This document shows, piece by piece, positions 331 to 61,786 of a DNA stretch of 64,000 nucleotides. This stretch comes from Ginglymostoma cirratum (Eukaryota). Position numbers and translations under genes: made by a program. Under the pieces are notes generated by a model. It was given only the letters and a program-made list of their open reading frames with translations. It made no database searches and had not been told where the DNA came from. Positions within the stretch are counted from its first letter, which is position 1. The number at the start of each line of letters is the position of its first letter. The stretch spans positions 12,756,620 to 12,820,619 of the forward strand of contig JAHRHZ010000133.1 of assembly GCA_024137785.1 (NCBI GenBank), read 5' to 3'.

Positions 331-624
331 TACATCCATGGTAAGCCTGGAGGCTCCTATAACTAATTTTGTTTCACTACTTCTTATGTTGTTTCCTATA
401 TGGACCCAGTTCCATTTTCTGATTTTTTCTGTTTCTATCATAGCTCTTTTTCCAATATTAAATTTCTAATTAGATACAAATGTTTTCTGTTTTACCTCGT
501 TCAAGGATTGTTCTCCATTATGTAAACAGCGGTCTGACCTGTGCCTGCCCCATTTCCTGTGCTTCCACGTGAAGCCTTGTCCTTTGCCCAGAAACATGAT
601 GGAGTTAGAATGATAGGAGATACG

Positions 625-1450
625 TGGCCAATTTTCCACATTGACAGATAGATGCCAGTGTTGTAACTGTATTGAAAAGTTTATCTAGAGATGCAGCTAG
701 TTGTGGAGCACAAGTCTTCAGTGATATGACTGAAATCTCGTCAGGGCCCATAGCCTTTGCAGTACCCAATGCCTTCAGCTGTTTCTTGATATCATATGAA
801 GTGAATTGAATTGAAAGCTGGCAGCTGTGATGTTAGGAACATGGGAGGAGGCTGAGATGGATCATCTACTTGACATTTCTGGCTGAAGATTGCTGCGAAT
901 GCTTCCGCCTTATTTTATACTGATGTGTTGGGCTCCACCATTGTTGAAGATGGGAATATTTATTTATTGGCCACCACCATTCACTGCTGGATGTGGCAGG
1001 TCTGCAGCGCTTAGATCTGTTCAATTGATTGTCAATTGCATGCTATTTCTGCTGTTTGACTTGCTGGAAGTTGTCTGTAGTAGCTTCATTAGGCTTACAC
1101 TACATTTTTAGGGATCCCTGGTGATTCTCTGACATGCCTTCTGCACTGGTCACTGAACCAACAGTGATTCCTCTGGCTTTTTAGTAATCATAGATTGGCA
1201 TATATGCTGGTACATGAAGTTACAGAGTGTGGCTGAAGATGATTCTGCTAACGATGATAGCTTGTTGATGGCCACAGCATGTCTGGAGTGCTCAGTTCTT
1301 GAGTTTTTAGATCTATTCAAAAGCTATTCCATTTAACAAGGTTATGATGCCACACATCATGAAGGGTACCCTCAATGTGAGCATAGGAAGTTCTACTCTA
1401 CTATGACCTTAAGGTGGTCATTCCAACTAATACAGCCAGGGACTGAAACA
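625..1450 (-). mobile_element. Decayed internal fragment of the CR1-group LINE family also seen at 18376-20172
   Basis: Colinear similarity to 19680-20170 (ggagcacaagtctt, cccatagc.tttgcagta, ggctgaagattg.tgc.aa, ctggatgtggcagg). Confidence 0.7.
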
Positions 1451-12961: not shown

Positions 12962-13454
12962 GCCATAATTCTACCATATGCAGACCACGAAAATGACCTC
13001 AATTTCAAGATCCTACCCAAATTCATGCCCCACTGGCTATTTTACAAGTGAGTTTTGCCCCGAACCAACAACCATCTGATGGATTTCAGATCTTTGTGTC
13101 TTTAATACTGTGTTCAAGTGCCTTCATGGCCTTGTCTTCCCTATCCTTGCAAACCCTGCCAGCTCAACACCACACCCAGCTCCTCAAACTTTCCTTGTCT
13201 CTCCCTTTGGCATCATGCAAGAGATACAGAAAATATCCTTTGTTCTGGGCAACTTTTGAAAAAACAACATGCCACTGATCGCTCAGGTAATTTGTTCCTC
13301 CTTAAGTTCCACTGTCTTTTCACTAAGTAGCTACACACTGAACAATCACAATACTCACTGTGATCACAATAGTTTCATAAGCTGTAACTATTCACCATAG
13401 AGTTTCCTACAATGTAATGGATCACTTCCAAGTTACAATGCATTATTTTTTATT

Positions 13455-13790
13455 TGTACATGGGATATAGACATCTCTGAGTGGGTCAACACTTACTGCT
13501 CATCCATCATTGTCCCATTATTCTGAATGGCTTCCTCTGGCCATTTCAGAGGACAGTTAAGAGTTAATCGCTTTGCTGTGGGTCTGGCATCACATGTAGG
13601 CCAGGCGAGGTCAGGATAGCAGATCTCCGTCCCTAAAGGACATTAGTAAACCAGATGGATTTTTACAACATCACCAACGGTTGCATGGCTAGCTAATAGT
13701 TCCAGATTGATATTGAATTCTAATTTCACCATATTGTATAAATGGCTAGTCCAGTGACATTACCATCAAGCCCCTACATCTCCCCCACCT
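13455..13790 (-). mobile_element. tRNA-headed SINE (same family as 54849-55210)
   Basis: Central domain ccctaaaggacattagtaaaccagatgg; tail shared with the LINE. Confidence 0.8.
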
Positions 13791-17227: not shown

Positions 17228-17555
17228 AAAAAAAAACCATTCACAGGATGAGGGCATTGCTGGCTAGGCCAGCATTTATTGCCCGATGGGAATTAAGAGT
17301 CAACTACATTGCTGTGGGTCTGGAGTCACATGCAGGCCAGGGAAGGATGGCAGTTTCCCTCCCTAAAGGGAATTAGTGAATCAAGTGGACTTTCCAACAA
17401 CGGATTCATTTTCATCAGTAGATTCTTAATTTTCAATTTTTATTGAATTCACAATCCACATCTGCCATGGTAGGATTTAAACTCATCTCTCCAGAATATT
17501 ACCTATTTCTCTGAATTAGCAGTGCAGTGATAACGCCACGAGGCCATAACCTGCC
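17228..17555 (-). mobile_element. tRNA-headed SINE inserted in the Gypsy integrase region
   Basis: Tail cattcacaggatgagggc...gcatttattgccc; central domain; head cgccacgaggccat. Confidence 0.85.
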
Positions 17556-18375
17556 TGCTGGTGAGGGGTTGGTACTATAAACAAATAGGAACTGGGACAG
17601 TTTGGTACCTAGTGAAGCTGAAAGCTATTTCTTTCACCCAGCCTTCAAAGGTTGGACTGCTCTTTCAGCCAGACCACTGCGTGATTGATGATATGGAGCT
17701 GTCCTGATATTTCAAATATCATTTCCGCTTCTGGAAATTCTCACATTCCCTGCTGGTAAACAATGGCCCGTTATCTGTGACAAGCATTTCCTGGAGTCCA
17801 TGTATTGCAAAAGGTGCGTGCAGTTTTTCTATCATCGTCCCTGTGACTGACGAATGAACACAATGCATGTCCCTCTACTCTTAATGCACACCCACAATGA
17901 GTAAGAACATCAAGTCTGCATCACCAACATTTAACTGAGTCCAGGGTTCACCCAGCCATTCCCTTGAATGTGGGGGTTTTGTTGGCAGTAACTTAGTGCT
18001 GGGCTGTAATTCTAAGTGCATATAATTACAAGTTGGAATACCACCCAGGAGGACAAGTAGCAAATGCAGATGCATTGAGCTGCGTCCCACTGGCAGACAC
18101 ACCACCAGTGGTACAAACACTGGAAGAGTCCCATAATAGTTCTAAATTTTCTGGGCCCACTTCCAGTCACAGCTGAGAATATCAGACTTTGGACAGAGAA
18201 AGGTCCAGTCCTGCCAAAACCAAATAATCCGCAAAGGCTGATATACCGTCACCAACTCAGGCTTTATTTACATATGGAGAGCCCTTGACACTGATCCGGC
18301 TCCCTCAGAACCAGCTGTCAGAGCGAGCAAGATGCCTGACACTCCTTTCTTATTTGTCAGCCAGGGCTCCCTGAC

Positions 18376-20172
18376 TTTTTAGAATTCATTCTGCAGGATG
18401 TGAGCTTTGCTAGCTGGCCAGCATTTACTGCCCGTCCCTAGTTGCCCTTGACAAGGTGGTGGTGAGTTGCCTTCTTGAGACGCTGTAGACCACCTGCCAT
18501 GGGTTGACCCACAGTATCCTGAGGGAGGGAATTCCAGGAATTTGTCTCAGCGACAGTGAAGGAATGGCGAAATATTTCCAAGTCAGGACAGTGAGTGGCT
18601 TGGAGGGGAACCTAAAGGTAGTGGTGTTCCCATATATGTGCTGCCTTTGTCCTTCTGGAAGGAAGTGGTCATGGGTTCAGAAGGTGCTGTCTGAGGATCT
18701 TTGGTGAATTCGTGCAGTTCATCTTGTAGATAGCACACACTGCTGTTACTGAGTGCCGGTGATGGGCAGAGTGGATGCTCGTGAATGTAATGCCAATCAA
18801 GCAGGTTGCTTTGTCCTGGATGGTGTCAAGCTTCTTGAGTGTTGTTTGGGCTGCACTCATCCAGGCAAATGGGGAGTATTCCATCACACTCCTGACTTAT
18901 GCCTTGTAGATGGTAAACAGGCTTTGAGGAGTCAGGAGGTGAATTACTCGCTGCAATATTCCTAGCCTCTGACCGCTCTTGTAGCCATTGCATTTATATG
19001 GTGAGTCCACTTGAGTTTCTGATTTTTTGATAACACCCAAGCTGGTGCTAGTGGGGGATTCAGAGATGGTAACACCATAGAATGTCAAGGGCAGTGGTTA
19101 GATCGTCTCTTGTTGGCGATGGTCATAGCCTGGCATTTGTGTGGCACAAATGTCACTTGCCACCTGTCAGCTCAAGCCTGGATATTGTCCAGATCCTGCT
19201 GCATGTGAATATGGAATGCTTCAGTGTCTGAAGCCGAGGTTTCCTGAGGAACTCCTGCAGAGATGTCCTGGAGCTGAGATGACTGACTTCCAACAACTAC
19301 AATCATCTTCCTAAGTGTCAGGCATGATTCTAACCACCAGAGAATTTGCCCCTGGTACACATTGATTCAAGTTTTGCCAGGGCTCCTTGATGCCACACTC
19401 ATTCGAATGGAGCCTCGATATCAAGGGCTGTCACTCTCACCTCACCTCTGGAATTCGGCTCTTTTGTCCATGCTTGATCTAAGGCTGTAATGAGGTCAGG
19501 AGCTGAGTGGCTCTGGTGGAACGCAAATTGGGCTTCACTGAGCAGGTTATTGCTGAGCAGGTGCTGCTTGATAACATTGTTGCTAACACCTTCCATCACT
19601 TTACTGATGATTGAGAGTAGACTGATGGAGTGGTAATCAGCCGGGTTGGATTTGTCCTGCTTTTTATACAAGAAGTACTAGGGAAATTTTCCGCATTGTC
19701 GAGCAGATACCAGTGTTGTAACGATTCTGGAACAGCTTGGCTAGAGGAGCGGCACGTTCTGGAGCACAAGTCTTTAGTAATATTGCCAGAATGTTGTCAG
19801 GACCCATAGCATTTGCAGTATCCAGTGTTTTCAACCATTTCTTGGTATCATTTTGGAATGAATCGATTGACTAAAGACTGGTATCTGTAGTATTGGGAAT
19901 GACTGGAGGAGACCGACCGAATTGGATCATCCACTCGGCACGTCTGGCTGAAGATTGTTGCAAAACTTTCAGCCTTATCTTTTGCACTAATGTGATGGGC
20001 TCTTCCATCATTGAGGATGGGGATATTTTTGGAGTCTCCTCCAAAGTTGTCTAATTGTGAGTTGTCTAATTGTCCACCATCATTCACGACTGGATGTGGC
20101 AGGACTGCAGAGCTTGAATCTGATCCATTGGTTGTGGGATTGCTTAGCTCTGTCTATCACTTGCTGCTTCTG
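18376..20172 (-). mobile_element. CR1-group LINE (RT plus 3' tail) inserted in the Gypsy 5' LTR
   Basis: KKQDKSNPADYHSISLLSIISKVME..AQFAF..TALDIEAPF; WLESCL..AGVPQ; 3' tail the same type as the SINE tail. Confidence 0.9.
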
Positions 20173-21094
20173 TTGACCAGATAAATAGCCCCAATCAAGG
20201 AACTCATATTCTGTGAGATCCACCAGGCTGACTTCATTACAATCACTACAGATTATATTGCGAGAGTTTACAACTGAACAAAATGAACAGTGCACTGTGC
20301 TAAATTTTCAGATTGAAGATTTAGAATTATTTTATAAGAAAAAATGTTTGTAGTTTCAGTTTGGGTGGGTTTGTAGGAGTCTTGGCTGAATCTGGGTATG
20401 TGAACACTTGCTCCTAAAAATGGGAGGCATTTTGAAAACTGATAAAGAAGAGGTTACTTCAGTATAGAGAGTTTATTTTAAAAGTTATAGACCCAAGGTG
20501 ATTGGTTAAAACCCTGATGGTGTTATTTGAAGCCAAAAAAGTCCAAGTTCAGTTGTAGGAAGACCCCTGGAAGAGGCTGTCAAATTCTCAAGATGGGAAA
20601 TTAAATGTTATAGAGGTGAAATAGAAGGAAATTCTGTTTGATGTGAATACTGTACAAGATTAATTGGATTATGTTTACAATTTTACAGTTAAATGTTTAC
20701 ATTTGTGTTGTCTGCAAATAGTTTAGTTTATTTTATATTATCTTCATTTCTTTTGTATAAACAGCTTCTGATTTATTGTTTAACCCAAATCTATAGTGTT
20801 GCATGTTTATGTTTCAGTGAAAGATCGCCTTGATGAAATTTTAAACAAATGATTGATCAAGTCAGATTAAAGCCTGAATCTGAGTTAGTCTGTAGTGAGA
20901 CCAGCTGGAATCATATTAGCATGTTAAATTCTATAACAATACCAGAACCAAAGAAGTTCCCATACCTAACAGACCAAGGAGTAGGAGCAATGAGCCACAG
21001 AATGAGGATGGTCTTACATGCAGATGATGAGGCTGATGGGTGGACAAATTGATTTGGTGATCTTGCCTCATTATACAAAACTTCTGAAGAAAAG

Positions 21095-23817: not shown

Positions 23818-24260
23818 TCATTATATACCACTGAGGGGTTGTTTTACTGATGGTGGGATCACAATTAGGGCAGCTGAACTAAAGATGCATAGGCCTTATT
23901 GTAGGCTCTTTAACCAGAACATTAGTATTTTTCCAATATCAGATCAAATCACTTGCCTGGTCACCAGGTGGATGAAGGTGGTCTCTCAGTATCAACACAG
24001 GGGAGGAAGGATATTTGAAGAAATGGGTAGGGAAGGAAGACCCTGCAATTTTCTTGGCAAAATTACCTTTTAAGCAATTGTCCCTTTTTTCCTTCTCATT
24101 GCCTGCCAAATATGGCTGGTCTCCTGTCTGGCTTAACAATGATCACCACTGGTACTGGTGGCGCTATTGAGCTGCTGTCTTCAATAGGACAGCATCCATT
24201 TGACTGTTTCTTTATTCTTTCACTGGAAGTTAGTCTCACTGGCTAGACCAGTATTTATTG

Positions 24261-25323: not shown

Positions 25324-25900
25324 GGGAGATAGTAGGAACTGCCGATGCTGGAGTCTGAGATAACAAGGTGTGGAGCTGGATGAACACAGCAGGCCAGGCA
25401 GCATCAGAGGAGCAAGAAAGCTGAAGTTTCAGCTCTGGACTCTTCTTCAGAAATGGGGGAGGTGAAGGGGGTTCTGAAATAAATAGGGAGAGGGGGAGAC
25501 GATGATAGAAGGTGGGTAGTGAAGCAGATAGGTGGAGAGAGGATGGACAGGTCAAGGAGGCGGGGATGAAGCCAGTAAAGGTGAATGTAGGTCGGGAGTT
25601 GGGATGGGGGTTGGTCAGTGAGGTGGGAGGAGTGGATAGGTGGGTGAAAAGACGGACAGGTCGAGGGGGCGGGGACGAGAGGGGGTGCTGGTCTTGGGAT
25701 GAGGTCGGGACTGGGGAGATTTTGAAGCTTATAAAGTCCACATTGAGATCACTGGGCTGCAGGGTTCCCTGGCAGAAAACAAGGTGCTGTTCCTTCAGCC
25801 TTCGGGTGGCATCGTCGTGGCACTGGAGGAGGCCTAGGATGGACATGTCGTCCAAGGAGTGGGAGAGAGAGTTGAAGTGGTTCGCGACTGGGAGGTGTTG
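25324..25900 (-). mobile_element. Penelope-like element: GIY-YIG C-terminus, 3' UTR and pLTR
   Basis: HFNSLSHSLDDMSILGLLQCHDDATRRLKEQHLVFCQGTLQPSDLNVDF, then a pyrimidine-rich UTR and the pLTR. Confidence 0.9.
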
Positions 25901-26181: not shown

Positions 26182-26600
26182 AGATAAGAGATAAAAGGTA
26201 CTGCAGATGCTGGAGAATCCGAGATAACAAGGGTGGGGCTGGATGAACACAGCAGGCCAAGCAGCATCATAGGAGCAGGAAAGCTTGACGTTTCGGGCCT
26301 AGACCCTTCATCAGAAATGAGTAATCAACGAGAAATTCTCGAGTACTTTCTTTTCAGTTTCCTTTTAAAGGGTTCCCAATTCTCTGGCTTCCACTCATCT
26401 TCACCGCATTGTATAGTTTATCTTTTCCTTCTGCACTATCCCTGACTTCATTTATAGAAGATTTATAGCATAGAAGATGGATAGAGGAGAAGCTTCATTG
26501 TGTCAGATTTCTGATGAAGGGTCTAGGCCCAAAACGTCAAGCTTTCCTGCTCCTATGATGCTGCTTGGCCTGCTGTGTTCATCCAGCCCCACGCCTTGTT
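26182..26600. mobile_element. Inverted Penelope pLTRs flanking ~185 bp of unrelated filler
   Basis: Arms 26188-26319 (minus) and 26507-26605 (plus); TSD atctctgagccat at 26169-26181 and 26601-26613. Confidence 0.85.
26287..26314 (-). ncRNA. Minimal hammerhead ribozyme core (Penelope type)
   Basis: CUGAUGA-a-GGGUC(UA)GGCCC-GAAAC-GUC: intact core, stem II and palindromic ACGU stem III. Confidence 0.65.
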
Positions 26601-28314
26601 ATCTCTGAGCCATGGCTGGGTGCTGTTTTGATGAGAGCGTTTGTGTATGTGAAATGTCTGTTGGAAGTGGGGAGATTGTGACATGCTGAAAATCAGCCAG
26701 GTAAGGTCAAGTTCTCATTCTCTGATTCATACTCACTTTCAGAATTTCCATGACACAGGCAAAGCTTTAGAAATCCATGGATTGAAGCCCAATATGGGAA
26801 CGTATTTCATTCCTCAAAACTGAAGTGCAGAGTATTTCACTGGAAAAAAGGTGGGGAAATTCTGTGCAAAAGCATACTTTCCCAAGAAAATATAACCAGA
26901 CAACAATAATGGGTATTTACATATCGTGAAACAAGTCTTTGTCCTCTAATTGACTTGTCTATTCCCAATGACACATAATTCCGCACCTAAGAAGCTTATC
27001 TTCTTCTTAATTGGAGCCAAGAGTTGTATCCCACAGAAGCATACATAGCATTTTTAACAGTGCTTAATAATCAGGTACGGAGCTGAATTCAAAGAGCCCC
27101 AACAGTTTCTCTGAAGTCATCGAGCTTCCCATCTGCAGAGAAAAATGCGAAGGAAGTTACCCTTATTCAAGAAGAAGCTGGAGGCCAGTGCATTTGACAA
27201 CACAATGGCATGTTTACATGTTATGCAAGCAAATAGCTTCAATAGGCAGGAAGAACAGAATAGTAAGCACTGATTGTTTTGCCAGAGGACGTGACTTGCA
27301 TGTGGAGTAAGGGTTCCTGTCTGTGTGAGGCTAAGCCAGTTATAGATATGGTCATGCTAGCAGACCAAATGGAAAAAATTGAGAGCGACTGGGTAGAATC
27401 GCAGTGCTCAGTAATAATGATGCATCATCTACTTCATTGAACATTAGAATTGACAAGAAAGTGATGCAAATATGGAACCTGACATGGCTTCCCACAGCTT
27501 CATCCTTTTTCAGGATATATTTAAACTGCTATTTTTGTACATCTGTGCTATTGAATCAACTGAGGCAATTTTTTAAAAAAGGACTGTATTATGAAACTAT
27601 AACTTCAAAGATGGAGTAAAGTCCACAGGCCTTCAGCACAGAATTAGAGTTATAATTTTGATCCCACCTCCGCTCACCCCCACACCCCACATCCCCCAAT
27701 CCTGCAATAAATTTACATATACTATGATGAAGAAGTGTGTGGAGAAAGGAAAGATTGTTGGAATATAATTTGTGAAGCCATTTGGAGAATAACACTGCAG
27801 AGGTCTGGAACTTGAGGACAGGAATGATAAAATATAGGGACCAAAATCTCTTTAAAAGTTGGCAAAAGTATGTTTTAGATTGTTTTCCCATCTCTTTCAG
27901 CTGTTGCAGTCTGGCAATTGCTTATCGTGCATTATTACACTCAATTGCACAAATAACATAATTGAATGAATTTTTGAAGACACTGAATTCCTCCATTAAA
28001 TGACAATGTCCTTTCAACTAAAATTGCAGTTAAGGCAACTGTTCAAATCATTTAGAACGTTACACACTACTTCTTCTGTTTCAATATATGGGGAGGAGAA
28101 GGGATTTCTTATCTGCATGAGGTTCTTAAGCCCCTAATTCAGCAATAAGTGTCAAGGTGACCATGTGTGGTTGGTGTGGAAAATCAAGGTAAAGTGCCAC
28201 ATTGGAGCAGCAAGAACTGCTCGCTGAGATTAAATGGCAAGAGCAATATTCAATCAGAATTGTTCAGAGTTTTGCTTAGCAGCTGTGTGTGTTTAACCTG
28301 ACCTGCAAACTTTC

Positions 28315-28492: not shown

Positions 28493-28544
28493 AAAACTGG
28501 AAAGTGTTAATTTCTCTGATTCTGGCATCAACAGACATCATTAT

Positions 28545-29320
28545 TTTTAAATTTCATTCATGGGATGTGGGGATGACTGCTGGGCCCACATTAATTGCCC
28601 GTCTCTAGTTGCCTTTGAAAAGGTAGTGGTGAGCTGTCTTCTTAAATGGCTGCAGTCCATTTTGCGTAGGTGCACCCACAATGCTGTTAGGTAGGGAGTT
28701 CCAGAGTTTTGACCCAGTGACACTGAAGACCCAATGATATATTTCCAAGTCAGATGGTAAGGGGCTTGGAGGGCAACTTGCAGATGGTGATGTTCCATGC
28801 GTCTGCTCACCTTGCCCTTGAAGTGGTCATTGGTTTAGAAGGCGCTGATGAAGGAGCCTTGGTGAATTTGCGCAATACATTTTGTAGATGGGACACACTG
28901 CTGTTACTGAGCAATGGTGATGGAAAGAGTGAATGTTTGTGAATATAATGATTTGTGAATATGGGTGACAAACAAGCGGGTTGCTTTGTCTTGAATGGTA
29001 TCGAGTTTCTTGAGTGTGATCGGAGCTGCACTCATCCAGACAAGTGTGGAGTATTCTATAACACTCCAGATTTGTGCCTTGTAGATTAGTGGACAGGCTT
29101 TAGTGAGTGAAGATGATGGGTTATAGGCTTCCTAGCCTCTGACTAGCCATATTTTTTTGTGTAACTAGTCCAGTTTGGTATCTGGTCAATGATAATCCTA
29201 GGCTGTTGATAGTGGAGGATTCAGTGATGGAGAGGCCATTGAATGTCAAGGGATGGTGGTAGATTCTTTTTGTTGGATATGGTCATTGTCTAGTTCATAT
29301 GAGGCACAAATGTTACTTGA
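28545..29320 (-). mobile_element. 3' portion of the same LINE family, tail-to-tail with 28315-28492
   Basis: Colinear with 18380-19160. Confidence 0.85.
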
Positions 29321-30181: not shown

Positions 30182-30538
30182 CTTTATTCATTCACAGGAT
30201 GAGGGCGTCACTGGCCAGGCAGCATTTATTGCCCATCCCTAAATGCTCAGAGGGCAGTTAAGAGTCAACCACATTGCTGTGGGTCTGGAGTCACATGTAG
30301 GCCAGACCAGGTAAGGACAGCAGATTTCCTTCCCTAAAGGATATTAGTGAACCAGATGGGTTTTTCCTGACAATTGGCCATAGATTCATGGTCATCATTA
30401 GACTCTTAAGTCCAGATATTTATTGAATTCAAATTCTACTGTCTGCCGTGGTATGATTCGAACCTGGGTCCCCAGAACATTGCCTAGGTCTCTGGGTTAA
30501 CAATCCAGCGATGATACCACTAGGCCATCGCCTCCTCC
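30182..30538 (-). mobile_element. Full-length tRNA-headed SINE
   Basis: A box TGGCCTAGTGG and B box GGTTCGAATC on the minus strand; central domain; tail ending tgaatgaataaa. Confidence 0.9.
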
Positions 30539-33689: not shown

Positions 33690-34083
33690 CAGATGATACA
33701 ATTGCAGATGAAATGGAAATTAGTGGGGTGATAAGTAGTGAGGAAAATAGCCTTAGATCACAGGGAAATATAGACGGGCTGGTCAGATGGGCTAATCAGT
33801 GGCAAATAGGATTCAATCTGGATAAGTGTGAGGGTACTTGGGCAAGATGGTCAAGACAAGGGAATGCATGATGAATGGTAGGATCCTGGGAAGCACCAAG
33901 GATCAGAAGGACCTCAGTGTACACATGCAACAGTCCCATAAGCTATTTGGACAGGTGGATAAAATGGTTAAGAAGGCATTTGGTATACTTGCCTTTATCA
34001 GCTGAGGCATAGTGCTTAAGAACAGCGGCGTTATGCTAGAATTGTATTAAACATTAGTCAGGCCACATCTAGAGTGTTGTCCA
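33690..34083 (+). mobile_element. CR1 LINE, left part, interrupted by the LTR unit
   Basis: IADEMEISGVISSEE..GLVRWANQWQIGFNLDKCE; ends gtcaggccacatctagagtg. Confidence 0.85.
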
Positions 34084-36640
34084 TGAAATAACTTCACAGA
34101 GGCTGGTATCCCATCACCAAGTCACCCTTTATTTACACATGCGGAGTCCTTAACACTGATTCAGTTCCTTCAGAGCCAGTTCTCAGAGTGAACAGGATAT
34201 CTGACACTCCTGTTCTTGTCTGTCAGCCAGGGATACCTGATTGGACTGGATTAGCAGCCCAAATCAGGGAACTCATATTCTATAAGGCCTAACTGGCTGA
34301 CCTTGTTACAATCAGTACATCCTTCCCCCTCTGAGTTCAAAGACATAGGTACCCCAGACAATAGGCAAGTAGCCAACATCCAGAAACCTCTTAGAAGGCC
34401 TCCAACACTGAGCTAGAGTCAGAGGCTTCAGAGGGTTCTGAACCATTACCTGGATAGTTACCCAGAAAATGTTAGAGCATCAATACAGGCTCCAGCTCGT
34501 GAGTAAAAATAGAACTGAAACCCCCTAACACATTCCACCTCCTCTCTGAATCTCTGGCCACTCCTGTCCTTCCAACTATCTCCTTGCATAATACCTGCAA
34601 CCTGAACAATCATCTCACCCACACACTGTCATCCTGCACCTTCATTCAACCACCCGCAACACTACTCTTTATCCAATTACCTTACATGCCTAGCTTGCTC
34701 ATGTAGCCCTTCAAAGGAGCTTTCAGGCATTTAACTACTTTTACTTACTGGAGTATGAAAGCCAGAGTCATGATAAAAGGAAGTGTTCTCCACAAAAACT
34801 ATCTCTGCTGCTCCCTGGGAGGATTGGTGCACTGCAATTATGAGGAAGGATCCTGCATTGGAAGATGGGCTTGAACAAAAAAATGTCATACAAGGGAATT
34901 AGTTAAACTTTCTGCCTGCTCTGGGTCAGAAATAGTGAATCTGACCAAGTTCAGAAGATTTTTATAATTTTGATTGTTTTCTCTGACATGAGCATTGAAG
35001 TGTAATGTCTGTTGACTACACTGCAGGCTCTATAATCCATCATTTCTTCTCCATTTTCTCCAGATATTGGCATTGACACGGTTACTATTAGTGTCTATTC
35101 CCCTTCTAAATTACTGTGTAATTTCACTCACATTACTTATATCTTAATTATTTAATTACTTATGTCCATACTTCTGTGACCAACGTATCATACCTTAATG
35201 TTAAATTTAATTTGCAATATGTCTCGCTAGTTTCAATTTTTTCTCAATCCTTCATGCTACCTCTGTTTTATTTATTTTCTTATTGTGTGAGAATTTAGTT
35301 ACAGTTGGTTACAATATGCAGACCATTTATATGCTGACAATGGGGTCTGAACCTTTTAAAACAAATTTGCAATGGATTACATAATAATGTCACGGATGTA
35401 ACAAAAAGCTATGACATCAGTTGAAGGGGGGAGAGGAGAGTTAATGGGTTAGTGGTAATGACACAGACCTAGTCATCTATAGAATATGGAGAAATTAGAA
35501 TTCATTATCAATCTGGAATTATTAGCTAGCCTAATGACAGCCATGTAACCATTGGTGATGTTCTAAAAATCCATCTGGTTTACTAATGTCCTTTAGGGAA
35601 GGAAATCTGCTATCCTGACCTAGTCTGGCCTACGTGTGACTCCAGATCCACAGCAAAGCAACTCATTCTTAACTGTCCTCTGAAATGGCCATAGGAGGCC
35701 ATTCAGAATAATTGGGCATGATGGATGAGCAATAAGTGTTGACCTAGTCAGAGATGCCTATATCCGATGAACAAGTAAAAAAAATGCATTGTAACTCGGA
35801 AGTAATCCAATATATTGTAGGAAACTCTGTGGTGAATAGTTACAGCTTATGAAACTATTGTGATCACAGTGAGGGGAGATGTGATTGTTCAGTGTGTAGC
35901 TACTTAGTGAAAAGACAGTGGAACTTAAGGAGGAACAAATTACCTGAGCGATCATAAGTAAGTTGTTTTTTTCAAAAGTTGCACAGAACAAAGGATATTT
36001 TCTGTATCTCTTGCATGATGCCAAAGGGAGAGACAAGGAAAGTTTGAGGAGCTGGGTGTGGTGTTGAGCTGGCAGGGTTTGCAAGGATAGGGAAGACAAG
36101 GCCATGAAGGCACTTGAACACAGTATTAAAGATGCAAAGATCTGAAATCCATCAGGTGATTGTTGGTTCGGGGCAAAACTCACTTGTAAAATAGCCAGTG
36201 GGGCATGAATTTGGGTAGGATCTTAAAACTGAGGTCATTTTCGTGGTCTGCATATGGTAGAATTATGGCCATAGGAACTTGGCAGCAGGCCATTTAGCCC
36301 CTCAAACCTGCTCTGCCTTTCTAGACGATGATTAAACATCGACCTCAATGCCACATTTCTGCATTATTTCCATATCCTTCTGAGTCATTAATCAATAGAA
36401 AGCTATTGATCAATATGGAATAACTCAATTCAGGCCAGTATCCCATCACCAAGTCACCCCTTATTTACGTGTAGAGAGTCATTGACACTGATCCAGCTCT
36501 TGCAGCGCCAGCTCTCAGAGTGAACAGAACCTTTTCTTATCTGTCAGCCAAAGCTCCCTGATTGGACCAGGTTAACAGCCCCAATCAGGGAACTCGTATT
36601 CTATGAGGTCCACCCAGGTGACCATCTTATAATCACTCCA
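34084..36640 (-). mobile_element. LTR-bounded unit with gag-pol replaced by duplicated host DNA
   Basis: Same-orientation LTRs at 34084-34319 (followed by PPT complement tccttccccct) and 36416-36640; the interrupted CR1 resumes at 36641; no clean TSD. Confidence 0.85.
34358..36415 (-). repeat. Right arm of the inverted duplication (copy of 12828-15054)
   Basis: Reverse-complement alignment; includes copies of the CR1 tail, an L2-like fragment and the SINE (35425-35775). Confidence 0.95.
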
Positions 36641-36880
36641 GCGTGCAATTTTGAAATCCGCATTATAAGGAAGGATGTGATTGCACCGGAGAGGGTGCAG
36701 AGCAGATTGAGCAGGATATTGCCTGGGTTGGAGAGTTTCTCTTATGAAGGGAAGTTTGGAGAGAGTGGGGTTGTTTACCTTAGACCAGAGAAGATTAAGA
36801 GGGGATATGACTGAGATGGTTAATAATTATGAGGGGCAGAGACAGAAAAAAAAAATTTTCCCTTAATGGAGGGGTCAAAT
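36641..36880 (+). mobile_element. CR1 LINE, right part
   Basis: gcattataaggaaggatgtgattgcaccggagagggtgcagag continues the RT from 34083. Confidence 0.85.
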
Positions 36881-36883: not shown

Positions 36884-36984
36884 TTTTTCTGGAGAAGGGT
36901 CTAGACCCAAAACGTCAGCTTTCCTGCTCCTCTGATGCTGCTTGGCCTGCTTTGTTCAACCAGCTCTACACCTTGTTATCTCAA
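36884..36984 (+). mobile_element. Penelope pLTR fragment
   Basis: ttctggagaagggtctagacccaaaacgtcagctttcctgctcctctgatgctgcttgg. Confidence 0.85.
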
Positions 36985-38957
36985 ATCCCAATGAGCATGG
37001 GCCATTACAATGAAAAAGATATTCGTAAAAGTGACAAGAAAAGTACAGAATTTTCAGAATGTTTTATACTGGCCAAAATGCAATCAAAGTGGCTTTGTTT
37101 GCATAAAGAAAGTATTTTAAAAAGTAACTCTATCCTTTGTTCATAAATGCAGGAAGTCACAGATCAATTTCTACTAAAATATAGCATCAGGTCACAAGTT
37201 TATTGTGAAATAAAGGACCTAGGCCTATTCACCCTCTTCCCAATCACCTTCACCTCCAACACACCCTGCAGACCGCCTGCCCAAAATGAATAAGATTGAT
37301 AAAGGTGGTTTTGATGGAATTGCCACCTTTAATGTTAGTGACAAACAAGCCATGGCTGCTACTGAATGATATTGGATACTTCAGGAACCCAAAAATAATA
37401 AATAGCTTTCCAAAAATAATGTTAACTGAAAATTGCGCGCTCATCTTTGACATAACGCAGGAACTGGCAGATGTACCATCTGTCTAAATCTGCAGGGACT
37501 GGGTGGTGCAGTCTGTTGAAATACTATCTGCTCCCCTTTGGAACAGGTTTTGTGTGCAAAGCAGGCCAAGAAACTTAAATCCTCCTCTCGCTGCCAGATG
37601 TAAGTGTCCCACAATACCACTCACTGAATAGGGAAAATGCAATTCATTGCTTTTCATACTTTCAAGGCCACTTATCGTGGTTTTCATGGAAATGTGCACG
37701 GATTGTGGAATGCAATCTCCAAGTCAATGTCACAATTCCAGGAGAGTTCTGTAATCCCATGGTATTACAGTGGAATTTTACTTATTCAGTCATTATAAAC
37801 CGGGGGCCTGCTTGTAAACAGATAGGAACAGAATGTAATCCTTAAACCCTCAGTAAAAATTCCAGATTCCATCAATATAGAAAAAATATACTGTTCACTA
37901 ATAAATTTAGCTCAATGTAGGAATTCTATGTTTTTTTTCATTATCTTTGAGTCCTAAAGTCCGGGGAAAATTACATTTACCTCAGCAAATAGTCAAAGTT
38001 CACTGCTTCCATTAAGCTCCATGTAACCCATCGGAATCTGCTGAATAGATTATTTTCAAGTATTGTTTATTCTGCAAATTTAATGCATGCTCAGATCATT
38101 AAGGCGGGATTCAAATGCAAGGACACATCTGCTATGCTGTGCAACTTCTATCTTTCATGCAGAGAATGAATGGATTAATGGGCTGGAGGATTAAAAATTA
38201 CACCTTCTTTGATTATATCTTGAAAAGTAGACTGGAGGCTGACTGTAATTCCCTCTGCTTCAACTGGAAAGCATCACACATGCAGGCCATTTGTCTTGAG
38301 GTGAACAACAACATATTATTTACTGTAATAATTTAATTTATGCAGAAGCAATATAAGACAGCAATGCAATACTTACATTTCACCAATCCAAAATGACAAT
38401 GCATTACAAAATTCTTATTGGTCAGCATCATTTACATTTACATTTGCTAATATGTTCCATTTCACAACAGTTATTTGTTTAGTATTCATTCTTGGGATAT
38501 GGATATTGCTGACTGGGTCAACATTTATTGCCCATCCCTAATTGCCCTTGAGTAATTGGTAGTGAGCTGTCTTCTTAAACATGCTGCAATTCATTTGGCG
38601 TAGGTGGGCACAGAATGCCATTAGGGAAGGAGTTCCACCTTTTTGAAGAAATGGTGATAAATTTCCAAGTCGGGCGATTGGCTTTGAGAGGAAGTTTCAG
38701 GTGGTGGAATTCCCAAGTATCTGTCATCCTTGTCTATCTAAGTGGAAGTGGTTGTGGGGTTAGAAAGTGCTAGCTTTGGTGAATTTTTGCAATGCATCGT
38801 GTAGATAGTTCACACTGTTGCTGCAAAGTGTCGATGGTGGGTGGAATTTGTGTTGTGCAAGCATTGATGAACATCCTCATTTTTGACCTTACAATGGAGG
38901 GAAGGTAATTGATGAAAAAGCTGAAGATGACTGTGCCTAGGACACTACCTGAGGAAT

Positions 38958-39058
38958 GCAGTCTCTTGTGGCTCTGTGGTAATGTCCTTACCTGTGGATC
39001 AGGAGGCTCCAGAGTTGTGTAATAACATCTCTGAACAGATTAATTAGAAAATATCTAC
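38958..39058 (+). mobile_element. Short tRNA-like SINE nested in the LINE
   Basis: gtggctctgtggtaatgtccttacc...ctccagag..tgtaataacatctctgaacag; imperfect flanking repeat ctac(c)ctga. Confidence 0.45.
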
Positions 39059-39641
39059 CCTGAAGCACACTAGCACAGACGCCTTGGAGCTCAGGTGACT
39101 TTCAATTAAGTACGGCTTCAACCAGCAGAGAGTAAACTCATGATTCCCATTGACTTCAGTTTTGCTAGGACTCCTTGGTGGCTGGCTGTCTTGCTGGTGA
39201 GACAAGACTTACCCAGGGATTTGTAATGCTGCATCTGGGACATTGTCTGCAAGGTATGATTCTGAGAGTATGACTGTGTCAGGCTATTGTTTAACTAGAC
39301 AGCTCTCCCAAATTAGGCACTAGGCCATCGGTATTAGTACAAAAGACTTTGCAGGTTAATGGGGCTATGTTTGCTGTTATCAGTGCCTTAGGCGCAATGC
39401 CTAGTGGTCTGTCCAGTTTTAAACTTTGTTTTGGAACAACTAAGTGCCTTACTAAGCTATTTCAGATGTTAGCTAAGAGTAAATCACACTTCTGTGGGTC
39501 TGGACTCACATATAAGCAAGACCATGTAAGTTTAGTAGCTCCATTCTCTGAAGGACATTAGTGAACCAGATGGGTTTTTAGAACAATCGCTACCATTTCA
39601 TGGTCATCATTAGGCCTTTCATTCCAGATTTATTTTATTGA

Positions 39642-39752
39642 ATGGGCTTCAGATTGGTTTGATGGGCTTCAGATTGGTTTCACAGGTCGGTGCAACATCG
39701 AGGGCCGAAGGGCCTGTACTGCGCTGTAGTGTTCTATGTTCTATGCTCTATG
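39642..39752 (+). mobile_element. Young, extremely 5'-truncated CR1 tail with a 19-bp tandem duplication
   Basis: (atgggcttcagattggttt)x2, then cacaggtcggtgcaacatcgagggccgaagggcctgtactgcgctgtagtg(ttctatg)n; CpGs retained. Confidence 0.8.
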
Positions 39753-40544
39753 AATTCAAATTCCACAATCTGCCATGGTGTGACTTGATCCTCGGATCAT
39801 AACATGGGTCTATGGAAAACGATCTACCAACAACGCCACGAGGCCATCACCTCCTCATGCCAAGTTTAGGAAACAGCATTTATGAAATGGTTAACCTGCT
39901 GCACAAATATGTTATCCATCTTTTCAATTCCTTGAATGTATTTCTCAGATACCTGAGGATGCTCTGGGCATATAACTGTCTATTAATCAAGATCAAAGAC
40001 GATATTTGAACATAATTGTCTTCTTAGTTAATGAGTAGTGATATGGTCTGTGCTGTCAGGGACTGCAAATGTACTCAATGAAGTTTGATGTTGATAGATG
40101 ATCCATTACATATTTTAAATATGGAGGTTAGACTTCTTGGAGTTGCCACTGCTCTCCTGTTACATCTCTTCTTCTGAGAGTTTCCAATTTGTTCCGTTGC
40201 ATGACAGATTTATACCTACTCTTTCTATCGGGGGATAGAGCCTCAGCAGAGGACTCCTTGGTCCAAGAGTTTCTGATAGAGAAACAGTCAGTTTACCCAA
40301 AGAATGGCAGCATTGTTGAATGGTCCATCCACTTACGGGGTTGTGGACAATGTTATTAATTTTTGGAGCGACGTACTAACTCCCTACCCACAACATCCCG
40401 TGCCAAAATTGTCAGCAATGAGAAAGGCAGGCATCAGGCAATGCAACACATTTTCTTCTGATGTCTGTACATCAGCTCACCTTGACACCTATCTAACCGA
40501 AAAGTGAGGATAGAATCATCAGTGACCTTCATTCATTGGGTATA

Positions 40545-42465
40545 TCACAGCAGTTATTCACTGGAATAATAATCCAGAGGTCTCCAGGTTAATGATCTGG
40601 AGACACAAATTCAAATCCTATCTTAGAAGCTGAGGAATTTAACTTAATTAAAATATACCCATCATAAAAAAGATAATATCAGAAGCGGTGACTATGAAAC
40701 TACCTGATGTATAAAAACACATCTGGTTCAATAATATGAGATAACAAGGTGTAGACCTGGATGAACACAGCAGGCCAAGCAACATCAGAGGAGCAGGAAA
40801 GCTTGACTTTTCGGGCCTAGACCTGTCTTCAGAAATGCTGAAGAAGGGTCTAGGCCCGAAACGTCAGCTTTCCTGCTCCTCTGATGCTGCTTGGCCTGCT
40901 GTGTTCATCCAGCTCTACACCTTGTTATCTCAGATTCTCCAGCATCTGCAGTTCCTACTACCTCTGGTTCAATAATGTCCTTATCCAGTCTGACCTACGA
41001 TGTGTCTCCTGACTCACAGCATCATGGCTGACACTTAGCTACCTTCTAACATGACGTAGAAAATCACTCAGTTGTATCAAAACCTAATAAGAATATAACA
41101 GGATCAACCCATGCATCAGGAATGATAAAGACATATCTTGCCCAGGCAAACTTGCAATGTTCTCCTCACTAACACTTGTTTCAAAGCTGTGAGTTCTAGC
41201 CACAAATTAGTCTGATGTAGTCACACTCATGCACTCACCTAGCACAGACGGCAGCAGCACATGGCATACTATCAGCTGGGAGAGGTCTAGGAAGTCTACA
41301 ACATTGACGCTGGACTACATGAGGTCTCCTAGCATCAGGTCTAACAACACAGCAATCAAACAATCTATTGATTACTACGTACCGCCTTCCACCTTGGCTA
41401 ATCAATTAGTACCTCTTAGTGTTGAGTGTTGTTTATAAGAAATACTGAAGTTAACATTGGCATTAGAATATATTCTTAATGTGTGAACTTTGTCCATCAC
41501 AAAGTTTGGCCTGTTAGCATCACTACTGACTGAAGTTGCCGTGTTATGACGGATATATCAGCCAGAGTAGGTTAATGGCAGGTAGTGAAATAATTAACAT
41601 GAGGGAAAAGCATATTGACCTCATCGTTGTATGTATCCATGGCAATGGTTGGTAGGAGTGATTGCCACATGTCTTTTCGCTTTGCACTGTGAATTCCATC
41701 CAATGGATTGTATTACATTACCATTACCCGAAATGAGATAGAGTCAGAACAGATCTTGGGCAGAACTCAGACCTGGGCATCTACGAAATGTTGTGAACAT
41801 CCAGCTGTGGCAGCAGAATTCTACTCGCCCACAATCTGAACTCTCATGGCCCAGCAAATCTATCATTCAAACATTATTATCAAGTCAGGGAACCTATCCT
41901 TACTTCATGATAACAGCATACCAGAGGTCTATAAATAAGGTTCTAACCTGGAAAAGCAGAAGGCTACGGAGCGAGCTAAGCCCATGTTCCATGGATTAAA
42001 ACTAGCCTCAGCAGTCTTGCACTTATGATCATGAATGTTGATGGACAATGAAACAAATAATAGGAGGAGGAGCCTCCCAGAACATTTAGATTCTTAACAA
42101 TTGTGGAATCCAAGACCTTAGTGCAAAAGATGAGGCTGGATTATTTGTGACAATTTGCCAGGGCTTCTTTGATAGCTCCTTTCAAAACTGTCAGTTTTAC
42201 CTCCTGGAAGAACAATAGTTGCATGAGAACAGCACCATTCGCAAGTTCACCTTCCTGTCACAGACTACCCTGATTTGGAAATATTGCTTCATCATCGCTG
42301 AGTTAAAATCCTGGAACACATCCACCCCATAAAAGTGTCTTGTGTGTATCTACACCACATGTACTGCAGTGGTTCAAGAAGGCAGCTCACCACCATCTTC
42401 TCAAGGTCAATTAGAAATGGATCATTAATGCTGGTCTAGCCACTGATGCTCACTTACCATGAATA
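40545..42465 (+). mobile_element. Second LINE copy: tRNA/SINE head + central domain + APE ORF + 3' tail
   Basis: Head ..taatccagagg..ttcaaatcc; catctggttcaataatgtcc domain; APE CNVLLTN, SDVVTL, NIDAGLHEVS*HQV, LLITTYRLP; tail attaatgctggtctagcc..catgaat. Confidence 0.78.
40736..40962. mobile_element. Near-perfect palindromic Penelope pLTR pair with a hammerhead core
   Basis: TSD tctggttcaataat at 40722-40735 and 40963-40976; CUGAAGA..GAAACGUC at 40838-40865. Confidence 0.92.
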
Positions 42466-43679: not shown

Positions 43680-44925
43680 CAACATGATTTCATGAAAGGG
43701 AATTTTGATTGTTGATTTTTTTCAAGGAATTAACATGCTGTAAGTAAAGGACAACTGGTGAGTTAACTGTATTTAGATTTCAGAAGTCATTTTATGTAAC
43801 TGTTACTGCAGAAAATAAAAATTCATTATGTAGTGATTCGCATTTTGGCATAGCTCAAAGATTGGCTAGAAACAAGAAGCAGTGAATAGGCATAAGATTG
43901 TCTTTTTCAGGTTGGCAGGAGTGGTGTGTGACAGGGATTGGTGCTGGGACCCCATCAATTTACGATTCATATAAATTACTTTAGTGAAGGGACAAAAAGA
44001 CTGATTGCCAAATTTTCTGATGATGCAAAGATGGTGGGAAAATATTCTTTGAAGACAACAAAAAGATTTATGAAGATATAGATAAGGTAATTGAGTGAGC
44101 AAAAGTGTGACTAATGTGGGATAATGTGAAATTGTCCATTTTGGCAGAAAGAACAGACCATGTAAATAGTAAGAGATTGTAGAGTCTAGATATGCAGAGG
44201 GATGAGTGTACCAGTGCATGAGTCATGAGAAGTTAAGTATACAGGTATAGCAAATAATTAGGAAAACCAATTATGTTATGAATATTATCATTTGAATGAA
44301 TGTCACCATTTACTTTGAGGGGAATTGAATAAAGAAGAAGAAAGGTTCCATTCAGTTAAACAGGGGCCTGGAGAAACCACATGTGGAGCACTGCGTGCGC
44401 TATTGGTCACCTTATTTAAGGAAAGATGTCAATGCATTTGAAGCAGTTCAAAACAGACCAGTACTTGGGATAAGTGGGCTGTTTTATTAAGAAAGGTTGG
44501 ACAGGCTAGATTTGTATCTGCTGGAGTTTAGAAGAATAAAGGCGTAACTTCAACATAAGATCCTGAAGTGTTGTAACAGGTAGGTGCGCAGAGGATGCTT
44601 TTTCTTATGGGAGAATCCAGAACTGGGGAATCACTGTTTAAGAATCAGGGTTTAGCCTTTAAAACAGTGATTAGACATTTTTATTCCTTTCTGTGGGTCT
44701 TGAGTCATTGGAACTCTCTCTCTGAAAAGATGATAGAAGCAGAGGCTTTGAAAGTGCTTAATGTAAATAAATTCTTGTTAAACAAAGGGTGAATTGTTAT
44801 CAGGGATCGGTGGAAATGTGAATTTGAGGTTTCAATCAAGTAGGCCATGATCTTATTAAATAGTGGAGCAGGCTCGAGGGACTGATTGGCCTACTCTTGC
44901 TCCTTAAATGCATGTTCATATGTTC
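43680..44925 (+). mobile_element. Old CR1 LINE RT plus tail
   Basis: tatttagatttcagaag (YLDF), aaattttctgatgatgcaaag (KFSDDAK), tail gtggagcaggctcgaggg..ggcctactcttgctcct. Confidence 0.85.
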
Positions 44926-46857: not shown

Positions 46858-48838
46858 CGAAATTCCTCCTCATCTAAAGTGTTGTCCCTTCACTTTGAGG
46901 CTGGGCCCTCAGGTCTTAGTTTCTACCACTTCTACTACTTCTCCAGATCCACTGTCTCAGTATTCAGCAAGTTTCAATCAGGTCAACCTCCTCATCCTTC
47001 TAAACTCCATCAACTATAGGCCAGAGTCCTCAACCACTCCTCATATCATAAGCCCTTCATTCCCGGGATCATTCTTGCAAACTTCCTCTGGAGTTCCTCC
47101 TAGGCTAGCACATCTTTCTTTAGGGGCCCAAAACTATTCACAATATTCCAAATGTAATCTGACCAGAGCCTTATACAGCCTCAGCAGTACATCCCTTCTC
47201 TTGTTTTCTAGCCTCTTGAAATGAATGTTAACATTTTGATCACTGACTTCAGACTGAGGCTGAGAGAGTGGAGAGCGCCAAGTTCCTCAGCGTGATGGTA
47301 ACCGACAACCTGTCCTGGATTTCCCATTTAAATGTGACAGTCAAGAAGGTACAACAACATCTCTTCTTCCTCGAGCAGCTCAGGAAATTTGGCATGTTCA
47401 TAAGGACCTTCACCAACTTCTACAGATGCACAATTGAAAGCATATTGTCCGGGTGCACAACGGCTTGGTGTAGCAACTTCTCTGATGAGGACCATAAGAA
47501 ACTACAGAATGTGGTGTGCACAGCCCAAACTATCACAGAAACCAACCTTCCATGCATGGACTCTATTTACATGGCTTGCTGCCACGGAAAGGCTGCCAGC
47601 ATCATCAAAGACCCATCGCACCCTGGTAATGATCTCCTACAACCTCTTCCATCAGGCAGAAGGTACAGAAGCCTGAACACACGAGGCAGCAGGTTCAGTA
47701 ACAGCTTCTTCCAGGCCACTATCAGGCTGATGAATGTACTCTCTAGCCTCAAATGATGCTGACCTTGCTAATGTTGATTTTGCCTAGCACACACCCTGTG
47801 CAATGTGACCTGTATGCCTCTGTCTAAGTCTTTTTGATCTGTACATCCAAGCTTACTATGATCTGCCTGTTCTGCTAGTAAACAAAGCTTTTCACTGTAC
47901 TTCAGTGCATGTGGCATAAATAAATCGATCAAATATTGTATTTGCCTTCGTAACTGTTAAATGAAACTGCCTATTAACCTTCAGAGAATACTTAACTAGG
48001 ACTGCTAAGTCCCTTTGTGCTTCAGCTTTCTACCCAAGAGCATAATCTCACACTTTCCCATATTGTGTTCTGCCTACTACTTCTTTGCTCACTCTTCTAG
48101 TCTGTCCAACTCCTTTGCAGCCTCACTGCCTCCTCAACACTGCCTGCTCCTCCACATAATTTTACATCATCTTAAAAAGTATGAACTATGCCCTCAGTTT
48201 CTTTGTCCACATCATTACTGTACAATGTGAATAGCTGTGGTCCCAATACGGACTCTTGTGGGACTTCAGGGGTCACTGGTTGCCATCCTGAAAGAGACCC
48301 CTTTATCCTCAGCTTCTGCCTTTTGCCAGTCAGCCAATTGTTTATCCATGCCGGTATCTTGCCCCTAACGCCATGGGCTCTTATCTTATTTAGCAGTCAT
48401 CTGCGCAGCACCTTGTCAAAGGCCATCTAGAAATCCAAATCAATCATGTTCACCGTCTCTCCTTTGTCTAACTTGCTCATTACGTCTGCAAAGAATTCTA
48501 ACAGATTTTTCAGGCATGAATGCCCCTTTGACAAAGCCTCGCTGACTCAGCCCTATTTTACCAAGCACTTCCAAGTCCTCTGCAATCTCACTCTTAATAA
48601 TGGACTCTAAAATTTTACTGAAGACCAAGGTCAGGCTAACCGGCCTATATTTTCCCATCTTTTGCCTTCCAGCTTTCTTAGACAGGGGTGTAACATTAGC
48701 TATTTTCCAGTCCTCTGGGACCCTCTCTAACTCCCGTGATTCCTGAAGATCACCACCAATGCCTCCACAATCTCCTTAGCTATCTCCTTCAGAACCTTGC
48801 AGTGTAGTCCATCCAGCCTGGGTGATATACCCACCTCC
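46858..48838 (-). mobile_element. CR1 LINE interrupted by Rex1
   Basis: GKYRPVSLTLVFSKILESIIK..SQRGFVKG; SPRLDGLHCKVLKEIAKEIVEALVVIF. Confidence 0.9.
47236..47932 (+). mobile_element. Rex1/Babar LINE 3' fragment (ORF 47268-47756)
   Basis: VESAKFLSVMVTDNLSW..KKVQQHLFFL..LRKF..FYRCTIESILS..DPSHPG..LPSGRRYRS; TSD-like aacatt/aatatt. Confidence 0.92.
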
Positions 48839-49112
48839 CTGAAGCCATGATCGGTCTCGATGGGCGAACATCTGACTTTTAGCCCAGAATGGGGGCTCCC
48901 CATTTTCACAAAGCATTTTGCTAGTCCTTTTTTTTTGAGTTCACTTATCATTTTTTTGATATAGATGGGCTGGCAGGTTCAATCCTTCTCTTTGCATAAT
49001 AAGTTGCAGATTTAAGTCTTTGTTCCAAAATAAAAACTGGAGTCTCGTCCAATACAGAGCCATTTGAAGGTCTCATTGTTAGCTGGACATTCCCCAAATG
49101 GTGAATTTTAAT

Positions 49113-49616
49113 AAAAACCAAAAGAACTGTGGATGCTGTNNNNNNNNNNNNNNNNNNNNNNNNNNNNNNNNNNNNNNNNNNNNNNNNNNNNNNNNNNNNN
49201 NNNNNNNNNNNNNNNNNNNNNNNNNNNNNNNNNNNNNNNNNNNNNNNNNNNNNNNNNNNNNNNNNNNNNNNNNNNNNNNNNNNNNNNNNNNNNNNNNNNN
49301 NNNNNNNNNNNNNNNNNNNNNNNNNNNNNNNNNNNNNNNNNNNNNNNNNNNNNNNNNNNNNNNNNNNNNNNNNNNNNNNNNNNNNNNNNNNNNNNNNNNN
49401 NNNNNNNNNNNNNNNNNNNNNNNNNNNNNNNNNNNNNNNNNNNNNNNNNNNNNNNNNNNNNNNNNNNNNNNNNNNNNNNNNNNNNNNNNNNNNNNNNNNN
49501 NNNNNNNNNNNNNNNNNNNNNNNNNNNNNNNNNNNNNNNGACCCAAAACGTTAACTCTGATTTTTTTTCTTCACAGATACTGCCAGACCTGCTGAGCTTT
49601 CCCAGCAACTTCTGGT
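49113..49616. mobile_element. Penelope-like insertion (another subfamily) spanning a 400-N gap (49140-49539)
   Basis: Opposite-orientation termini; TSD gtgaattttaat at 49101-49112 and 49617-49628. Confidence 0.8.
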
Positions 49617-54589: not shown

Positions 54590-55310
54590 ATTGAATCGTA
54601 GAATCCCTACAGTATGGAAGCAGACCATTCAGCCCATCAAGACCACACTATCCTTCTGAAGAGCATCCCACCCAGACACAACCCCCACCCTCTACCATAT
54701 CCCTGTGACCCTTCATTTTCCCATGGCTAATCCATCTGGCCTGCACATCCCTGCACACTATGGGCAATTTAGCATGGCCAATAAATATAATTTGCGCATT
54801 GTTGGACTGTGGGAAGAAACCGGAGCACCTGGAAGAAACCCATGCAATGGGGAGGCGATGGCCTAGTGGTATTATCGCTGAACTGTTAATCCAGAGACCC
54901 AGATAATGTTCTGAGGATCCAGGCTCAAATCCCGCCATGACAGATGGTGGAATTTGAATTCAATAAATATCTGGAATTAAGAATCTAATGATGACCATGT
55001 ATCCATTATTGACTGTTGGGGGGAAAAGCCCATCTGGTTCACTAAGGCCCGTTAGGAAAGGAAACTGCCATCCTTACCTGGTCTGGCCTGCATGTGACTC
55101 CAGACCCGCAGCAATGTGGTTGACTCTTAACTGCTCTCTGGGCAATTAAAGATGGGCAATAAATGCTGCCTAACCAGCAACACCCTCATCCATTGAATGA
55201 ATTTTTAAAAAATGGGGAGAACATGCAATCTCCACACACATAGTTACCTGAGGGTGGAATTGAACCTAGGTCCCTGATGCTGTGAGGCATCCGTGCTAAC
55301 CATCGTGCCA
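54590..55310 (-). mobile_element. HE1 V-SINE interrupted by the tRNA-headed SINE
   Basis: Head ggcacgatggttagcac..ggttcaattcc; V-domain; CR1-like tail gatgggctgaatggtctgcttccatactgtagggattctacg. Confidence 0.92.
54849..55210 (+). mobile_element. Full-length tRNA-headed SINE (central domain recalls the MetaSINE domain)
   Basis: A box TGGCCTAGTGG, B box GGCTCAAATCC; catctggttcactaa..ggaaaggaaactgccatccttacctggtctggcc; tail ending gaatgaat; flanking repeat aatggggag at 54846-54854 and 55211-55219. Confidence 0.9.
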
Positions 55311-61692: not shown

Positions 61693-61786
61693 AAGAAGGG
61701 TCTAGGCCCGAAACGTCAGCCTTCCTGCTCCTCTGATGCTGCTTGGCCTGCTGTGTTCATCCAGCTCTACACCTTGTTATCTCTTT
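61693..61786 (+). mobile_element. Penelope pLTR fragment inserted in Gypsy pol
   Basis: 16-bp TSD aagcgatttacttcag at 61677-61692 and 61787-61802. Confidence 0.92.

Follow-up and report, generated by a model that had tools for sequence, protein, structure and literature searches.

Two decayed long interspersed nuclear elements (LINEs) in the genome of Ginglymostoma cirratum begin in the manner of short interspersed nuclear elements (SINEs): a tRNA-like head and a SINE-type central domain, then a spacer of about 120 nt, and then directly the start of the apurinic/apyrimidinic endonuclease (APE) coding region. Both copies, designated A and B, lie in the window, by which we mean the whole 64-kb stretch analyzed (assembly GCA_024137785.1, contig JAHRHZ010000133.1, positions 12,756,620 to 12,820,619). 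By sequence, both belong to the elasmobranch Zenon LINE, a member of the CR1 group; they are old and have undergone internal deletion. We hold with high confidence that the architecture is real and family-wide. The textbook division assigns LINEs to RNA polymerase II (Pol II), and RNA polymerase III (Pol III) heads to non-coding SINEs. This division becomes less sharp with a coding LINE whose tRNA head has persisted in sharks and rays alike.

Seven elements in the window proved, by self-comparison, to have the head and central domain in common. Five are free SINEs (S1 to S5), and the other two are copies A and B. A preliminary description of this DNA had placed the head, central domain, spacer, and APE amino terminus in that order in two copies, at 38483-39855 (minus strand) and 40545-42465 (plus strand); order and coordinates both hold. 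The A and B heads align with the free SINE heads at scores of 96 and 49-71 (shuffle maxima 30-33; 0/300 each). The A/B junction, comprising the extension, spacer, and endonuclease start, scores 67 (shuffle maximum 36; 0/300). Aligned by themselves, the spacer is weak (13/300 shuffles as good) and the endonuclease start nearly so (2/300). Counted from the common motif CTTAGCT, the endonuclease begins after 124 nt in A and after 119 nt in B. Central domain and endonuclease are thus separated by 119-124 nt, with no ORF1 (first open reading frame), as had been noted earlier, but this is normal for Zenon. Also as claimed, neither copy has a SINE tail behind its central domain (298/300 and 73/300 shuffles score equally); the same tail matches the 3' ends of both (0/300). 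No other endonuclease start of this family was found in the window, and so 2/2 bear the head.

Coding remnants were located with a frameshift-tolerant profile built from 15 related APE-reverse transcriptase (RT) proteins, with 40 shuffles as the null. The copy A endonuclease start scores 33.8 (null maximum 18.9; 0/40 shuffles), and its matches at profile positions 3-51, 584-666, and 829-927 each stand at 0/40. Copy A thus retains the APE start, RT, and carboxyl-terminal remnants in order, and full-length relatives hold both domains, as expected for APE and RT in one ORF. Contigs of four out of 24 sequencing runs were aligned to copy A, where depth is not to be read as copy number. Summed depth is 8-40 over the unique flanks; 1e5-1e6 over the head, central domain, and tail; and 2e4-1e5 over the endonuclease start, the last indicating a high-copy family. 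Contigs connect the head to the central domain straight across the CR1-type tail insertion (which by eye resembles the CR1 tails of Fig S5 in the available part of PMC7245038), and joints from central domain to tail represent the SINE form. Loose contig ends fall at 39006 and 39051-39057, inside the RT remnant. One run, presumed to be of RNA, gave contigs over parts of copy A that do not demonstrate transcription. From a second, related species, one contig spans 39253-39577, junction included, with 25 differences in 325, which shows that the junction is not an artifact of assembly and that the insertion is older than both species.

Copy B is less well preserved. Its endonuclease start scores 17.9 (4/40 shuffles), by itself not significant, and its three profile segments are equaled by 4, 1, and 1 of 40 shuffles. 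The element runs on into a linker colinear with truncated copies E and C, and then jumps to the 3' part. A protein search with the decayed endonuclease gave 0/7 significant candidates. (The head contains a perfect 8-bp hairpin stem at 40587-40614, in the variable-arm region; by eye, published Zenon heads keep a hairpin there, with sequences differing by species.) Both copies are dead, with frameshifts, large internal deletions, and later insertions. Neither has an intact APE-RT ORF; Pfam, searched with single reading frames of each copy, gave no LINE domain; and inspection of their flanks by eye revealed no element-wide target duplication. The first reading had overlooked the CR1-type tail and RT repeat fragment in A, the palindromic insertion in B, and the internal deletions in both.

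The family is not new. Stuart et al. (2026; PMC13343379) report that Zenon LINEs occur in five elasmobranchs as well as in coelacanth and hagfish, that none has ORF1, and that those of sharks and rays are not yet in repeat databases. The first 400 nt of the consensuses in their Supplementary Table 2, the portion compared here, start with the tRNA-like head and central domain in 7/7 elasmobranch rows (five species, 2.9-3.3 kb). None of the three other Zenons carries the module in those 400 nt: two hagfish rows and one coelacanth row, the last partly in low-confidence lower case. In 3/7 elasmobranch rows, the 400 nt reach the endonuclease start or come right up to it. A motif from the window occurs in six of these rows, and in the seventh with one base missing; conversely, three consensus motifs each match the window once, in the B extension, the A spacer, and the A endonuclease (at most 1/100 shuffles). 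The presence of the module in all seven implies that the architecture is family-wide, and older than the split between sharks and rays. CarCar_Zenon, HypSab_Zenon, RhiTyp_Zenon, ScyCan_Zenon, and SquAca_Zenon thus resemble the window copies in their 5' 400 nt, in lacking ORF1, and in carrying APE and RT. They may differ at the other end: published Zenon is given a poly-A tail, whereas the decayed window copies mostly end in GAAT repeats followed by mixed A/T runs.

The preliminary description envisaged a possibly uncatalogued, single-ORF, autonomous LINE that spread with a tRNA-type 5' module. Spread with the module is borne out by the seven consensuses, none of which has the different 5' untranslated region with ORF1 that would have told otherwise. 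Copies A and B themselves lack autonomy, their family has already been catalogued under the name of elasmobranch Zenon, and a single ORF is the rule there. The Zenon sequence is published, but its tRNA-type start appears to have gone unremarked. The word "tRNA" occurs 0 times in the main text and supplement text of PMC13343379 (table cells to 400 characters; figures, Zenodo, and Dfam entries being outside this scope), and that text mentions neither a head of SINE type nor a SINE partnered with Zenon. A literature search that did not extend to subscription papers and Repbase reports yielded no description of a tRNA-headed shark LINE, and viral, metagenome, and prokaryote genome collections yielded nothing of the Zenon family.

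Could the junctions be fortuitous? The SINE and the LINE might be separate families, joined by chance nested insertions or by chimeras of consensus extension. Depth reaches 1e6 for the SINE versus 2e4-1e5 at the LINE 5' end, which suits this idea. In the copy A spacer, positions 39326-39439 are uncovered by other copies at 80% likeness (a hole, and not evidence), leaving the junction known from A, B, and the consensuses. The same tail-less junction nevertheless occurs at two unrelated loci and in seven consensuses from five species, and we judge separate families very improbable. Nested SINE insertion was rejected as the source of the A and B junctions, which are alike and lack a SINE tail. 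A second possibility, also raised in the preliminary description, is a local inverted duplication that produced both A and B: the two are arranged head to head, 0.7 kb apart, and an inverted segmental duplication exists elsewhere in the window. Their flanks are unrelated (105/300 and 209/300 shuffles score equally), their identity is 57-65% compared with 86% in the true duplicate pair, and their deletions differ. A local duplication is refuted on these grounds, and we accord it practically no weight.

The five free SINEs consist of the LINE 5' part plus the LINE's last 50-65 nt, and nothing else. S1 and S4 are one duplicated locus, 86% alike. (They lie in an inverted segmental duplication, 12950-14490 and 34775-36281, 22 kb apart and 78-98% alike.) Among four independent insertions, the SINE junctions take three forms. 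These varied junctions, and a longer form that keeps more LINE 5' sequence, are what one would expect if the LINE had undergone internal deletion several times; they would fit as well if a Zenon had captured a long SINE and the SINE had later been shortened. The tRNA-type module likely links the Zenon LINE to the matching SINEs of this genome.

What does the head do? We lean towards a model in which the Zenon 5' end, tRNA-like head plus SINE-type body, acts as an internal promoter from which Pol III transcribes the whole 3.3-kb element. Template switching would have placed the head on a Zenon before the divergence of sharks and rays. Because it is internal, the A/B-box promoter would be copied into every full-length insertion, like the internal Pol II promoter of other LINEs. 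The uncapped RNA would be translated from a non-standard start; the APE-RT protein would copy its own RNA along with short SINE RNAs through the common tail; and SINEs would arise, or be renewed, through internal deletion of the LINE.

Several observations are consistent with this promoter model. Scored against A- and B-box patterns, as mismatch counts that carry no chance control, S3 and S5 have 0 and 1 mismatches (A box, B box), copy A has 1 and 2, and copy B has 2 and 2. By eye, the boxes are readable in most of the Zenon consensus heads compared. The head may, again by eye, have a long variable arm like that of serine tRNA. Runs of four or more T stop Pol III. The preliminary description had suggested a scan for such terminators; run on the five window copies, it revealed a depletion, albeit a weak one. 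Nine runs occur in 6088 nt of these decayed copies, against 17.6 (6/300) and 13.7 (17/300) expected from shuffles. At four of the runs another copy is aligned for comparison; one of these recurs, in 1/6, while the other three are private. The T5 run of copy A is missing from most contigs.

Other observations weigh against the promoter model. Rfam and ARAGORN called no tRNA in the window, nor did Rfam call one in the two best heads; the consensus fold of five heads is weak, with no cloverleaf. Among the published consensus starts, that of stingray has a shortened head, and the B-box region has been lost from one of dogfish (by eye). The T-run depletion reaches only 17/300 under the stricter shuffle, and concerns window copies and not a full consensus. 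Pol III processivity is thought to limit SINE length, and Pol III RNAs are uncapped, according to the available portion of PMC10886601. In six readable rows of Table 3 of PMC13343379, Zenon copies per family number 2313, 1419, 612, 396, 294, and 59, with 0 to 3 intact ORFs per family (0/2313, 1/1419, and 3/612); such rarity implies that the family is largely extinct.

A substantial possibility, if short of an even chance, is that the architecture is real and yet Pol II makes the full-length RNA, through host read-through or an element in the central domain, so that the head drives short SINEs only. Non-LTR elements (those without long terminal repeats, LTRs) are as a rule Pol II-transcribed (PMC10886601 and PMC5786205, in the parts available); a cap would ease translation; and the head has decayed in the two consensuses just mentioned. 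Pol II transcription does not readily account for full-length consensuses that begin at the head in all five species, nor for A and B boxes that have been kept and T-runs that are depleted, though weakly.

Translation poses its own problem for the Pol III promoter. In the stingray consensus, the sole one seen from head to endonuclease, the endonuclease frame by eye holds no AUG beyond its last stop, and an extra assumption is therefore needed for translation. In 3/5 species the consensus starts contain AUG-GCC-UAG-CAA, in strong context and in the endonuclease frame, and the copy B ATG-ACG-TAG (41051-41059) is likewise in that frame. Whale shark and dogfish consensuses break the frame, and there is a second conserved AUG, shifted from it by one frame. 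Going by these sequences, Zenon translation may start by read-through, frameshift, or a non-AUG codon. (The AUG-x-UAG micro-ORF ahead of the endonuclease is a possible read-through or reinitiation signal.) Only tentatively, then, would we propose the fullest version: a Pol III-transcribed coding LINE, translated from uncapped RNA with no AUG in frame, retained in this form in sharks and rays, and from which its SINEs directly descend, which would make it a missing link between LINEs and SINE bodies.

Shark tRNA-SINEs paired with a LINE have precedents. HE1 and HER1, ascribed to Ogiwara (1999), reportedly have only their tail in common. The same holds for SacSINE1 and L2-2_CM (Luchetti 2017, in the accessible part of PMC5499810). 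Closer parallels are mentioned in the available part of Kojima (2018; PMC5786205). RTE-1_DAn and relatives are LINEs with a tRNA-like sequence that matches many SINE2 elements, as here, but they belong to the RTE clade, and receive one sentence, their matches having been filtered out of that analysis. In Bov-tA, WALLSI2, and CoeSINE4, the SINE body and tail match LINE 5' and 3' ends, as here, but there the tRNA head is an addition to the deleted form alone, and the contributing LINEs are limited to RTE and Vingi. Zenon differs from these bipartite SINEs in carrying the head on a full-length coding element, and in belonging to the CR1 group. The Helenus, Ajax, and Cassandra miniature terminal-repeat retrotransposons (TRIMs) similarly have a small-RNA Pol III promoter in a non-SINE retroelement, but are of LTR type, short, and non-coding (PMC10886601, available portion).

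Since each SINE part exists in the Zenon LINE, the family offers a living test of how SINE bodies originate. A practical consequence is that repeat libraries will wrongly annotate the 5' ends of Zenon as SINEs, and the SINEs as pieces of the LINE. An identity as SacSINE1/Deu with an L2 partner was rejected, as the published Deu motifs are absent. The central domain may resemble that of AmnSINE2. Among published motifs in the available supplement of PMC7245038, the two for Deu have 0 matches in the window at three mismatches (the window holding no positive control copy), and those for Meta and UCON3 have 0 matches each.

Table 1. Zenon copies, matching SINEs, and later insertions in the window
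Feature	Position	Strand	Remark
Copy A, tRNA-like head	39755..39856	-	A box 1 mismatch, B box decayed
Copy A, later insertion between head and central domain: 3' tail of CR1-type element	39644..39754	+	About 110 nt
Copy A, central domain	39470..39643	-	Common to free SINEs and Zenon consensus 5' ends
Copy A, extension and spacer up to endonuclease	39351..39469	-	White shark Zenon consensus motif matches 39397-39414
Copy A, APE endonuclease amino terminus	39195..39350	-	Frameshifted; then ~530-codon deletion (profile 3-51, next match 584)
Copy A, RT remnant	38854..39183	-	Broken by another repeat fragment near 38985-39058
Copy A, carboxyl-terminal remnant, 3' untranslated region, and tail	38483..38841	-	Tail common to SINEs
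Copy B, tRNA-like head	40545..40653	+	Decayed
Copy B, central domain	40654..41046	+	Split by palindromic insertion
Copy B, later palindromic insertion	40736..40962	.	227 nt; 14-bp target duplication 40722-40735 / 40963-40976
Copy B, extension and spacer	41047..41152	+	ATG-ACG-TAG in frame with endonuclease motif
Copy B, decayed endonuclease and linker	41153..42154	+	Then >1.2 kb deletion taking out RT
Copy B, 3' part and tail	42155..42465	+	
Free SINE S1	13443..13790	-	Longer form, ~30 nt more LINE 5' sequence; duplicated with flanks as S4
Free SINE S2	17231..17552	-	Head, central domain, short tail
Free SINE S3	30185..30537	-	Best-kept A and B boxes
Free SINE S4	35440..35785	+	Segmental duplicate of S1
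Free SINE S5	54847..55213	+	
LINE copy C, same family	18375..20190	-	5'-truncated: linker, RT, tail
LINE copy D, same family	28541..29291	-	5'-truncated
LINE copy E, same family	612..1334	-	5'-truncated: linker to RT start

Copy C matches PF00078, and the named proteins nearest its RT stretch are gene models from Mobula, Scyliorhinus, Heptranchias, Heterodontus, and Rhincodon. Ten decayed 3' ends consist mostly of GAAT repeats, followed by A-rich or T-then-A runs. Directly after the tail, runs of 5-9 T occur at the 3' ends 17231, 42465, 55213, and 24830; tail drift, target preference, or a terminator are all possible.

The short repeat of the copy B insertion is abundant in the window, both as head-to-head palindromes (23631-23824 and 40736-40962) and as monomers (9194-9262, 25326-25455, 26187-26319, 26503-26608, 36886-36986, 57075-57211, 61688-61783, and 62250-62436). 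Its copies yield sub-threshold, miRNA-like hairpin matches in Rfam, which make up most of the window's Rfam matches, all of them below threshold. Another interspersed repeat family is present at 2430-2592, 7429-7799, 16379-16793, 18212-18346, 34077-34319, and 36409-36642, and RT remnants of other LINEs at 2792-3484, 11929-12096, 43803-44057, 47247-48950, and 57674-58086. Assembly gaps of 400 N lie at 9265-9664 and 49140-49539, the first flanked by halves of the palindromic repeat.

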